This document shows, in pieces, positions 5,094 through 8,000 of a stretch of DNA of 64,000 bases. Origin of the DNA: an uncultured Verrucomicrobiota bacterium (lineage in GTDB: Bacteria > Verrucomicrobiota > Verrucomicrobiia > Limisphaerales > CAZZJO01). The notes under the pieces were generated by a model that did not search any database, was not told where the DNA came from, and saw nothing but the letters and a program-made list of their open reading frames with translations. A program made the translations under genes and the position numbers. Every line of letters begins with the position of its first letter. Position 1 is the stretch's first letter. Location of the stretch: positions 42,086-106,085 of the forward strand of contig CAZZJO010000034.1 in the NCBI GenBank assembly GCA_964654645.1, given 5' to 3'.

Positions 5094-8000
5094 TTACGTT
5101 GTGGTTCTTTGCTTGATGGTTTTGAGCAACCAACCACCTTTTTGGCGGTTTGTAAGGGCTTGGAGTTCTGCAACGGCCCTGTCACGGTTGATGCGCTGAG
5201 CAATGAGATCTTCGTAAACCATATCAGCATGCTTACGCCGGCGTACAGCGTCGTCGGCATCAAGGAGCTCTTCGACATACCTCCATATCCATTGGAAAGG
5301 AGTGGGTTTTTTCTTATTAGTTGTACTAATCTTGCGGCGGATATCAGACATTGTAGCCTCAAGTTTTTCCAGGATTCTGTCGAGTTCCGCATTAATTTGC
5401 GGTGAGAGTGATGGGTTGGAATTTTTGAGGATTAGGACAGTTTCTCTGACGTATTCTTCACAAAGCACACCGAATTCATTGAATGATGCCAGAGGCGCTA
5501 AGGTCTGGTAAGTTATGCGTGTTGCATTCTCCCTAAGTAGTTTTGCGGCTTTATAGCATTTTTCCCAGGCAAGCCAACGGTAAACGAAGTCCAACCCAGT
5601 CCCTTTTATGTTTTGAATTCCCATGATGCGATTATAAAACCCTGGGGGTGTATGCCGTGCTATAGTTTCCACTATTTCGTCGCCACTAGCGTGATAGTCC
5701 CAAATGACAACGAGCTTTGAATTGAACCATTTTTGTAAAAGGCTTCTGAACTGGTTGTTAAGTTGGGCAGCATTATGAGAAGAGGATTTGCTTATTTCTG
5801 ACCTGAATTGGTGGTATTCATGGAAGATAGAAAGCTCGTATTTTAGGGTGTTAATGATGGCAGATTCGATTTCTCCCAAGTTATAAGGTTGAAGGTGTTT
5901 TTGAAGTTCGTCGGGGTTATTCCAAAGTGGAATAAATGAGTCGGGGTTGTTGATGCAGGATTGTGCCGACAGCATTATTTTCAAGTGAGTTTTGATTAGC
6001 GATTCAAAGACTGGAAGCCTCATACGGATAGCGTGACGTTCAAGGTTGAACAATGCTTCTTCTGGATTGGGTTGTGTCACGTCTTTCCAAAGACTGATTC
6101 GTGGGAAAGCTTCTTTCCATGCGTCATCAATGTATCCTAGGAGACCCGAAAGGTTACCACCGATTAGGAAGTGTCGGTCAGCAGAGATGTCATTGACTAA
6201 TATTCGGGCGAAGACTTGTGATCGTGCTACGCGATCGGCTCGGTTATTGACGACGGTCGATATCCAAACTCCTGGGTCATTTATGTAATCTTGTTTATCG
6301 AATCCAATGCGGGACCAGTTATTTAATGTACCGAACCGCTCGTTAGCAGACATACCGTTGGTAAATTCTAGCTTACGGGTGCGGATAGGAGCGGCCGGGA
6401 AGGTTTTGAGAACACCAAGATCAGGTACCACTCTGTCGGCCATTTCCTTGAGTGCAAAATCGCGGTCGATCCCCAGTTCTTCTGCAAGTCCAAGTACGAG
6501 TGCTATGTTGTAAGGATGTTCTTCATACGGAAACCGTTGCAAAACATCCGGTGTTAAAAGTCCTGCTTCTAACCATCCGACTGTTCGGATCTTTGTTTTG
6601 CATCGCCGGGCTTCATCTTTTAGGATGGGGATCATTTGTTCTTCGGTGGTTACTAGAGTGGATTTTTCTGGGATGAAGCCGGCTATAACTTCCGCTACGT
6701 TAAATCCTGCGGGTCCTTGTATATCTTCGTGATCAGGGTAAGTGTTAGTGATCGTGGCGAAATCGTCCTTCATCCAATGGCGTTGAAGCACACGCACATA
6801 GGAGGGATTTAACCCCATGCATTCCCATAACAAAACTTGGGCATGTAATCTACCTGCTAAGCGGACCACGAATGTTTGTTCCCATATAGTGGCTTTGTCG
6901 TAAGGCCGGAAAAGGAACATTTCCTTTAACTCCCCGAAAGGCCAAGAATGCAAAAGCATTGCTTCGCAGCCTGTTGTTTTGGAAACCGTTGCATAACCCA
7001 ATGAGTTGAACAAGGCGGCTTTAAGCCGTTCTGTTCCGGACTTACCTCGTGTGCCCCAGCCGCCGATTACTAAAGGAATGCGCGACCGCCAGTATCTTAA
7101 CCTGAGGTTTGCGAATAGATGGATACCAAAAAACAACAGGCAAAATGCTATGATGAATATGGTTAGTTCGAAAACTGAGTTTTGATAAAGCGAGACGAAG
7201 TATTCGTATAGTTTGTCGAAACTTTTGAACAGGAGCGTAAAGTAATCTGCGATAGGTTGCCAAAGTTGGTCTAGCCAAGGAACTGCAAAAAATACGGGGA
7301 AGAAGCGCAGAACCATTAGATCTGGCTGTAATGGAACACCTGATAAATCTGGATAGGTATGAAATCTTATCTTGAACCCGAGTTGGAGCAATGTAGATAG
7401 GTAGGATTTGGGGTCTTCTGTAAAGTGCTCACGCCAATTACGTTTTTGCGCAATTTTTTCGAATTTAAAAGTGAGTTTTAGCAAAGCCCTAATCCGTTGC
7501 CATCCTCGGGGCGATTCCACTTCTGTGATTCCTTCAGGGGTGAATACATAAAATTTGTGTTGTCTGAATCCGAGTTCTATTGCTGATACAAATTCATCCA
7601 GGAGTGGCAAATAGGGACGCCACCCACCTTCTTCGGGGATATATAGGGGTTCACCCGGTACTTTAGTCTGGGCCATTTCGGCCATGATTGTGGTGTGGAT
7701 ATGTATTTCACTGTGAAAGATCCGGCCTATTGTGTGGGGAAATGCTTGGCGTTTATCTGGAGATGGGTGCTTGAGTTCGTGCCACCAACGCCACCATCTA
7801 AAGCCGAAAATGTACCCACGAGTTATTACAAAGCCTTTGGAGGTAAGCTTTAGTTGTACTGGGTGATCATAACGGCAAACGGTAGCTAAAACCCGGCCTA
7901 CGAATGATGGATCCAGATCGGCAGTCCAGTGCTTGGGGATGCGCTTGCTTTTCCCTGGAGGAATGGACTCGATTAGCTGTTGGAGATTTTGGCGGAGCTC

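Follow-up and report, generated by a model that had tools for sequence, protein, structure and literature searches.

A PgsB/CapB-like amide ligase with long extensions in a conserved gene cluster of diderm bacteria

What is known of poly-gamma-glutamate synthesis comes almost wholly from the small PgsBCA(E) complex of Bacillus, and we know of no model for the export of the polymer by outer-membrane bacteria. The more distant relatives of its ligase PgsB (CapB), namely the Mur ligases, FolC/FPGS and the M domain of cyanophycin synthetase, share an ATP-dependent acyl-phosphate chemistry. Here we describe a long PgsB/CapB-like protein of 1408 amino acids (aa), B1408, and its gene cluster, found in a stretch of 64,000 nucleotides (nt) from an uncultured Verrucomicrobiota bacterium (contig CAZZJO010000034.1, positions 42,086 to 106,085; the whole stretch is called the window). 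In our reading, to which we give a probability of roughly 0.6, a PgsB-PgsC-type polyamide synthase has been rebuilt for two membranes, with B1408 as its ATP-dependent amide-ligase subunit and poly-gamma-glutamate or a close analogue as its most likely product. Compared with the Bacillus-type PgsBCA(E)/CapBCA(DE) operons, the cluster lacks PgsA, PgsE and CapD and its hosts are diderm.

Ligase core and extensions

The open reading frame (ORF) 5094-9320 on the minus strand is intact over 1408 codons and can be divided as follows.

5094..9320, (-): B1408 ligase, 1408 aa, PgsB/CapB-type, extended at both termini; last gene of the cluster
7911..9023, (-): HEAT-like alpha-solenoid, residues ~100-470; sub-threshold HEAT_2/HEAT matches, PF13646/PF02985 matches in homologues, alpha-periodic hydrophobicity
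7296..7883, (-): orphan alpha/beta domain, residues ~480-675; invariant columns, mixed strands and helices predicted by AlphaFold2
7083..7175, (-): hydrophobic helix, residues 716-746 (core 719-741); same position as the N-terminal membrane anchor of PgsB/CapB
6153..7073, (-): catalytic core of predicted Mur-ligase fold, residues 750-1056; P-loop with K760, E833, D863-H864, SANE, NNRADR
5718..6152, (-): predicted all-helical insertion within the C-terminal ligase domain (AlphaFold2), residues 1057-1201; missing in CapB
5589..5717, (-): predicted strands 1203-1205 and 1229-1236 and invariant loop QNIKGxGxD, residues 1202-1244; presumed last strand of the ligase C-terminal domain
5097..5588, (-): helical basic C-terminal tail, residues 1245-1408; ends in the conserved DAxDAVRRR...Y...L...RQKGGW

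The initial annotation had placed an amide-ligase core at nt 5571-7178, which corresponds exactly to residues 715-1250, and every motif that it listed, including the P-loop, K760 and a Trp/Arg-rich segment, was located where it had put them. From the N-terminus these are the Trp/Arg-rich GFRWWRWWHELKHPSPDKR (506-524), the P-loop motif GGWGTRGKSGTERL (753-766, with W755-S761 encoded at nt 7038-7058 and K760 as the P-loop lysine), KTTGCEA (781-787), LWECMGLNPSYV (831-842), NTYPDHEDIQGP (859-870), FPYEEHPYNIALVLGLAEELGID (930-952), FTNGMSANE (986-994), VVNNRADRVARSQVFA (1023-1038), FLIGGN (1051-1056) and IQNIKGTG (1235-1242). B1408 has one strong hydrophobic helix (719-741), which is followed by the Arg-rich RLRYWRSR.

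The PgsB model TIGR04012 is the sole NCBIfam match of B1408 at E <= 0.01 (E 3.6e-61, 207 bits, residues 723-1056 on profile positions 3-321 of 380). BLASTP against CapB of the B. anthracis plasmid pXO2 gives 33% identity (E 7e-42) between residues 721-1054 and CapB 69-390, the anchor helix included, and hhalign of a 49-sequence family profile against CapB returned a probability of 99.8%. The models for MurC-F, FolC and cyanophycin synthetase gave no match to the isolated core with its insertion spliced out (NCBIfam, E <= 1). An affiliation with the PgsB/CapB clade in preference to MurC-F, FolC or CphA, as first proposed, is thus upheld, TIGR04012 being the only family match and CapB aligning across the whole core. 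As in the Bacillus proteins, the anchor helix stands directly before the P-loop (B1408 716-746 against CapB 69-90), ~335 residues of the core are colinear and include every nucleotide-binding and catalytic motif, and PgsC/CapC is co-encoded. The P-loop K760, E833, D863-H864, N993, R995, NNRADR and QNIKGxGxD are invariant among the 49 family sequences, and because the nucleotide-binding and catalytic motifs are conserved in this way the enzyme looks active. The alignments show the ligase core to be a divergent sister of PgsB/CapB, catalytically complete as judged from its sequence. The automatic annotation of the Joint Genome Institute (JGI) already labels several family members PgsB/CapB, so the identity of the ligase is not itself new.

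The motif-by-motif colinearity with PgsB described in the initial annotation is far above chance for residues 721-1058. Its last pairing, of IQNIKGTG with GVGNIHG, was not confirmed: neither BLASTP nor hhalign nor the PgsB profile recovered it, even with the insertion spliced out, and the profile match to the spliced core stops at position 330 of 380. The two motifs would be compatible only through the predicted strand 1229-1236 and the position of the glycine loop.

AlphaFold2, run on residues 481-1408 with the family alignment, gave a model with a mean predicted local distance difference test (pLDDT) score of 82 and a predicted template-modelling (pTM) score of 0.67. In this model a mixed alpha/beta region (481-675) is followed by a low-confidence linker, a long helix (716-746) and a strand-helix ligase body (750-1056), and then by an all-helical segment (1057-1201), strands at 1203-1205 and 1229-1236 and long helices up to the C-terminus. 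The top 50 Foldseek matches in the PDB all have the Mur-superfamily fold, most of them being MurC/D/E/F, FPGS, CphA1 and MurT, with E values down to 8e-7 over ~390 columns. The predicted structure of the B1408 core is that of the Mur ligase superfamily, with a central ATPase and a C-terminal Rossmann-like domain. The Mur ligases, FolC/FPGS and the M domain of cyanophycin synthetase thereby share the fold of B1408 and provide its best solved-structure matches, whereas identity in the structural alignments is 11-15% and no profile match to B1408 was obtained. A search of the PDB with the whole B1408 sequence returned no match; solved structures match at the level of the superfamily only, because the PDB holds no PgsB structure.

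PgsB/CapB proteins measure ~390-460 aa, whereas B1408 carries in addition an N-terminal module of 715 residues, an insertion of 145 and a tail of 164. The insertion, estimated in the initial annotation at ~130-160 aa, is modelled by AlphaFold2 as 145 all-helical residues (1057-1201) between the strand FLIGGN and the strand 1229-1236. The tail had been described as helical and basic, and residues 1245-1408 are indeed predicted as helices, with 29 K+R vs 21 D+E. Pfam at E <= 5 gave nothing meaningful on either segment. A 103-aa ORF read in a different frame within the 3' end of the ligase gene (window 5081-5392, minus strand) is most likely spurious, and a scan for terminators 3' of the gene found nothing above chance.

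Within the N-terminal module, the HEAT repeats noted at first are weakly supported in B1408 itself (HEAT_2 on residues 272-340, E 2.3e-5, under the Pfam gathering score) and recur in about half of its homologues as precomputed PF13646/PF02985 matches. Residues ~480-675, the orphan domain, form the most conserved part of the protein outside the ligase, with some forty invariant columns and the motifs RGHxFGFRxWRxLHExRHPSPDKRQAFxHTIGR, ETKVPGEP, GWRPYLPLxD and RNW; the domain ends at RFFP. Searches with it found nothing in Pfam (family members) and only chance-level matches by sequence profile in the PDB (residues 470-690).

An exhaustive phmmer search with residues 1-715 identified 553 representative proteins. 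Of the 150 best matches, about one in three measures only ~600-720 aa, most of these 650-720 aa. Seven such stand-alone modules (P0072, P0074, P0075, P0077, P0081, P0085 and P0088, ~670-712 aa) have no signal peptide and no membrane helix, and six of them end at most a dozen residues from RFF(P), at ~675, the 712-aa P0072 running ~45 residues further. Judging from these lengths and end points, the stand-alone proteins of ~680 aa appear to be natural split forms of the fusion, and the N-terminal module is probably a separable partner subunit that is cytoplasmic, since it carries no export signal. The suggestion that the extensions serve as scaffolding or regulatory modules is consistent with their conservation in every relative found and with the stand-alone existence of the N-terminal module in about a third of the representatives.

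Gene cluster and partner proteins

A word-indexed search returned 51 clusters of related proteins, 50 of them full length (1375-1553 aa, 37-61% identity) and one an 887-aa partial sequence. The few with a named source belong to Verrucomicrobiota, Planctomycetota, methanotrophs, Massilia and Mariprofundaceae, and the proteins are annotated as "hypothetical", "HEAT repeat domain-containing" or, by JGI, "PgsB/CapB". The nearest relatives, at 61% identity, come from metagenome-assembled genomes (MAGs) of Verrucomicrobiia. In a scan of one genome per species, at least 481 species carried a full-length relative; 80 loci were kept, and all 80 are from diderm lineages. Carriers include Methylovulum miyakonense HT12, Desulfocicer vacuolatum, Halomonas daqiaonensis, Vreelandella massiliensis, Massilia glaciei, Ramlibacter rhizophilus and Marinobacterium weihaiense as well as Ca. 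Uabimicrobium, Thiomargarita, Ca. Electrothrix and Magnetococcus. In the window, genes for a porin and for a protein with autotransporter (PATR) repeats indicate that its organism is diderm as well. The identical B1408 protein was found on 9 contigs, four of which come from four different samples, and it occurs in Great Boiling Spring 77 C metagenomes. A chimera of the assembly or a decaying gene is rejected, given these 9 contigs, the full-length relatives in at least 481 species genomes, the intact frame and the invariant catalytic residues.

B1408 is the last gene of a cluster whose members lie on the minus strand in abutting or overlapping frames, in the order CHASE2 kinase, response regulator, C1067, p830, p291, p1821, ligase.

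22317..25013, (-): CHASE2 sensor histidine kinase, 898 aa; profile matches
21443..22117, (-): receiver-only response regulator, 224 aa; REC at 103-213, 99 nt upstream of C1067
18140..21343, (-): C1067, 1067 aa; two tandem PgsC/CapC repeats (~40-179, ~228-353), then two degenerate p291-like domains
15646..18138, (-): p830, 830 aa; N-terminal signal anchor, rich in beta-type sequence
14767..15642, (-): p291, 291 aa; signal peptide, M14/PghP-like predicted fold
9329..14794, (-): p1821, ~1800 aa; cleavable signal peptide, helical middle, beta-amphipathic C-terminal ~320 aa

Gene order was assessed by tblastn of the cluster proteins of the window against the fetched loci, requiring at least 9 kilobases (kb) of upstream sequence. 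The order p830, p291, p1821, ligase is kept in 47 of the 57 loci that satisfy this, spanning Pseudomonadota, Planctomycetota, Verrucomicrobiota, Acidobacteriota, Desulfobacterota and others, and in 63/75 loci the end of a p1821 homologue lies shortly before the ligase. The ligase is by far the most conserved member, with 40-60% identity vs 20-37% for the others. The locus of a Thiomargarita sp. (L034) has a ligase homologue with 10 kb of upstream flank in which tblastn finds no p830, p291 or p1821; its partners may be too divergent or located elsewhere. A Pirellulaceae MAG (L077, 302-3910) encodes the p830 and p291 homologues as a single ORF of 1203 aa, a possible natural fusion, and the p1821 homologue is represented by two genes in L007 and apparently also in L021, L023, L033 and L066. 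A reading of the cluster as a defence system was dropped, the PADLOC models giving no match on any of the five cluster proteins. Curated NCBIfam and Pfam models cover neither the ligase extensions nor the three partner families, and Pfam at E <= 5 shows nothing meaningful on p1821, p830, p291 and the C-terminal half of C1067. At the level of PDB sequences, profile searches gave only chance-level matches for p291, p830 and the C-terminus of p1821. What emerges beyond the initial annotation is a widespread five-gene cluster of diderms with three extracytoplasmic partners and no PgsA.

The first ~360 residues of C1067 match CapC (PF14102, E 4.6e-36, two copies; TIGR04011 is the corresponding NCBIfam family), the PgsC/CapC unit being, unlike in the known proteins, tandem-duplicated and fused to ~700 residues with two metal-less p291-like domains. 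The p291 profile matches this C-terminal part at ~405-570 (probability 94%) and ~669-866 (probability 90%). The metal ligands are replaced in both domains, which suggests that they are polymer-binding pseudo-enzymes.

Searching with p291 as a single sequence recovered no more than its own cluster; the family came from an alignment-based search. The protein has an N-terminal signal peptide, replaced by a lipobox in many homologues. H124, D128, R154, D158 and H187 are invariant in the family, and E262 is kept in 33/33 sequences of one alignment (A3) and in nearly all of another (A4). The AlphaFold2 model (pLDDT 88, pTM 0.86) resembles zinc carboxypeptidase-like folds (4oko, 2qvp, 4b6z, 3a9l, 21dc and 5onj by Foldseek), and the top eleven fold matches include three solved poly-gamma-glutamate hydrolases (PghP 3a9l, 21dc and YndL 5onj). 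Like PghP, PghL/YndL and the M14-like zinc hydrolases, p291 combines the predicted fold with an invariant His...Asp...His and a nearly invariant Glu; unlike them, it has no detectable sequence similarity to this group, its H-x3-D differs from the spacing in PghP and M14 enzymes, and the structural match has a TM score of 0.4-0.5. From the model, p291 is a putative hydrolase of M14/PghP-like fold with a His/acid/His metal site.

The homologues of p830 begin with signal anchors and those of p1821 with classical cleavable signal peptides. p830 was also considered as an analogue of PgsA/CapA by homology and rejected, the hhalign probability against CapA being 0.1%. In p1821 residues 620-900 are alpha-periodic and the strongest beta-amphipathic periodicity lies in the C-terminal 320 residues; in alignment A5, an OmpA peptidoglycan-binding domain is present in two of the 24 homologues and a SPOR domain in one. 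In its longest form the p1821 ORF shares 28 nt with the end of p291 (window 14767-14794); the start chosen by gene callers, 8 codons further on, yields a protein of 1813 aa with a more typical signal peptide, MIRIFGVALIVLAAF. The protein is a candidate periplasm-spanning or outer-membrane export component.

The response regulator has ~100 N-terminal residues without family assignment before its receiver and no output domain. Relatives of the CHASE2 kinase adjoin the cluster in L019, L027, L050, L057, L079, L080, L082 and L087, and the regulator does so in L027 and L079; wherever a rearranged locus exposes the beginning of the cluster, the kinase and the regulator lie next to it. A tblastn search with CapA found matches in 2/84 related loci, at 15774-16607 of L058 (Ramlibacter rhizophilus) and 3704-4834 of L080 (Acidobacteria MAG); these CapA/PgsA-like genes are no more than a few kb away from the cluster, and the other 82 loci have none.

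The conservation just described also bears on the view that B1408 is an ordinary PgsB with functionless, lineage-specific decorations, next to large genes that are unrelated to it. The JGI label PgsB/CapB of several members agrees with such a view, but the extensions keep 37-61% identity over their full length, with many invariant residues, gene order is kept across phyla with overlapping or abutting frames, and homologous hydrolase-like domains link p291 to the PgsC-like C1067. We regard this view as very improbable and consider both it and an artefact to be effectively excluded.

Elsewhere in the window, a bidirectional Hox-type NiFe hydrogenase/diaphorase operon (24-4794, plus strand; HoxH-like, Oxidored_q6, NuoG-like Fe-S and 51-kDa-type subunits included) is convergent with the ligase gene. 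Directly upstream of the CHASE2 kinase is a complete phosphate-uptake block (25602-32096, minus strand), comprising an OmpR/PhoB-type regulator, PhoU, PstB, two permeases, a PstS-like binding protein and a Porin_5 porin. Two further genes (36551-42762, minus strand), one for an S8 subtilase of 708 aa that has a PA domain and the other for a 1280-aa protein that contains four PATR autotransporter repeats, fit a diderm such as a member of the Verrucomicrobiota or Planctomycetota.

Proposed function and membrane topology

In the mechanism that we propose, the ligase, working at the cytoplasmic face of the membrane, would use ATP to activate the gamma-carboxylate of the elongating chain and would add glutamate, and the PgsC-like bundle of C1067 would pass the chain outward, coupled to polymerisation. 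The two metal-less hydrolase-like domains fused to PgsC might hold the emerging chain, which p291 would then trim or release. p830 and p1821 could carry it through the periplasm and the outer membrane, together replacing PgsA. The cytoplasmic module of HEAT repeats and orphan alpha/beta domain would scaffold or gate the ligase, possibly under a control that responds to the adjacent CHASE2 kinase and receiver-only regulator. A further step, which we put forward tentatively and hold to be somewhat less probable than its converse, is that the five genes and the CHASE2 two-component pair constitute an envelope-spanning diderm machine, in which polymerisation and secretion of an anionic polyamide are coupled and the HEAT/orphan module acts as a post-translational switch of the ligase.

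A number of observations weigh against this interpretation. B1408 scores under the PgsB equivalog cutoff of 222.7 bits, even after splicing (207 bits whole, 213.5 with the insertion removed; CapB reaches 592.8), and glutamate is assigned as its substrate by homology only. No PgsA/CapA homologue was found in the cluster (no PF09587; tblastn of the window with CapA empty). The fold match of p291 is at superfamily level and fits other peptidases equally, while for p1821 Pfam gives no TPR or beta-barrel family, the best porin match has E 0.12 and a C-terminal aromatic residue is absent. The link with kinase and regulator consists of adjacency in a minority of the inspectable loci. Finally, only one strong hydrophobic helix is conserved in the family, and the positive-inside rule alone would place the N-terminal module outside the cytoplasm. 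Given the score below the cutoff and the missing PgsA partner, B1408, whose closest relative is PgsB, is best filed as a distinct long-form sister family and not as PgsB itself.

The same machinery might serve another chemistry, by making a different polyamide or by attaching glutamate or another amino acid to a non-peptide envelope acceptor. The sub-cutoff score, the identity to CapB of only 33%, the lack of PgsA and the many different acceptors that enzymes of Mur-ligase fold use would agree with this, as would the resemblance of the p291 fold to M14 peptidases and N-formylglutamate-amidohydrolase-like proteins. PgsB is nevertheless the only family match, the cluster encodes a duplicated PgsC, a partner specific to polyglutamate synthases, and the best fold matches of p291 include polyglutamate hydrolases. 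We consider such a chemistry unlikely and retain a PgsB-PgsC-type synthase of poly-gamma-glutamate or a close analogue as the preferred reading.

Membrane topology requires separate discussion. In PgsB the C-terminus is cytoplasmic and the N-terminal anchor essential, and the C-terminus of PgsC is periplasmic (PMC7490850). The ligase of B1408 must be cytoplasmic, because it needs ATP and because the C-terminus of PgsB is cytoplasmic (PMC7490850). With the N-terminal module in the cytoplasm as well and one strong helix between the two, the fused form presents a topology problem. If the helix were an ordinary single span, the 715-residue module would be periplasmic and could be a scaffold for the exported chain. 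The conserved single helix, the Arg-rich flank on its ligase side and the periplasmic partners p830, p291 and p1821 would all suit this arrangement. Fused and stand-alone forms, however, both lack a signal peptide or anchor, and some members have a second hydrophobic segment ~40 residues upstream. We know of no bacterial route for the export of a 700-residue N-terminal domain without a signal sequence, and we judge a periplasmic location improbable. Since the N-terminal module lacks an export signal, the hydrophobic helix is probably not a simple single span. B1408 has a weak second hydrophobic peak at ~678-682, which in some planctomycete members is a real second segment ~40 residues upstream of the helix. 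This suggests that the helix more likely forms a hairpin with the weakly hydrophobic 673-712, or is packed into the PgsC bundle, and that the module stays in the cytoplasm.

Novelty and significance

A full-text literature search found no description of the B1408 architecture or of its cluster, and the architecture, the cluster and the implied diderm export route appear to be new. For polyglutamate synthesis, descriptions of a coupled envelope-spanning machine or of a post-translational switch of the ligase are lacking. In its operon logic the cluster resembles the Bcs (cellulose), Pga (poly-N-acetylglucosamine), Alg (alginate) and Pel systems, with an inner-membrane synthase-translocator, a periplasmic polymer cleaver and a very large secreted protein as a possible bridge; the resemblance is one of analogy only, no homology having been found. 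Those products are made by glycosyltransferases, whereas here an ATP-dependent ligase would make a polyamide, and no receptor for cyclic di-GMP was detected.

The B1408 family represents a defined and widespread alternative to the Bacillus PgsBCA(E) complex, present in at least 481 species genomes. Its carriers include methanotrophs, giant sulfur bacteria, cable bacteria, planctomycetes and halomonads, several of which are cultured, so that the proposals made here are testable. The cluster offers a conserved set of candidate parts for export, trimming and regulation and supplies four protein families and one large conserved domain without assigned function, and the natural occurrence of the N-terminal module in both split and fused form limits the membrane topologies open to PgsB-type enzymes. 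If the proposed reading is true, the cluster would be the polyamide counterpart of the synthase-dependent polysaccharide systems.

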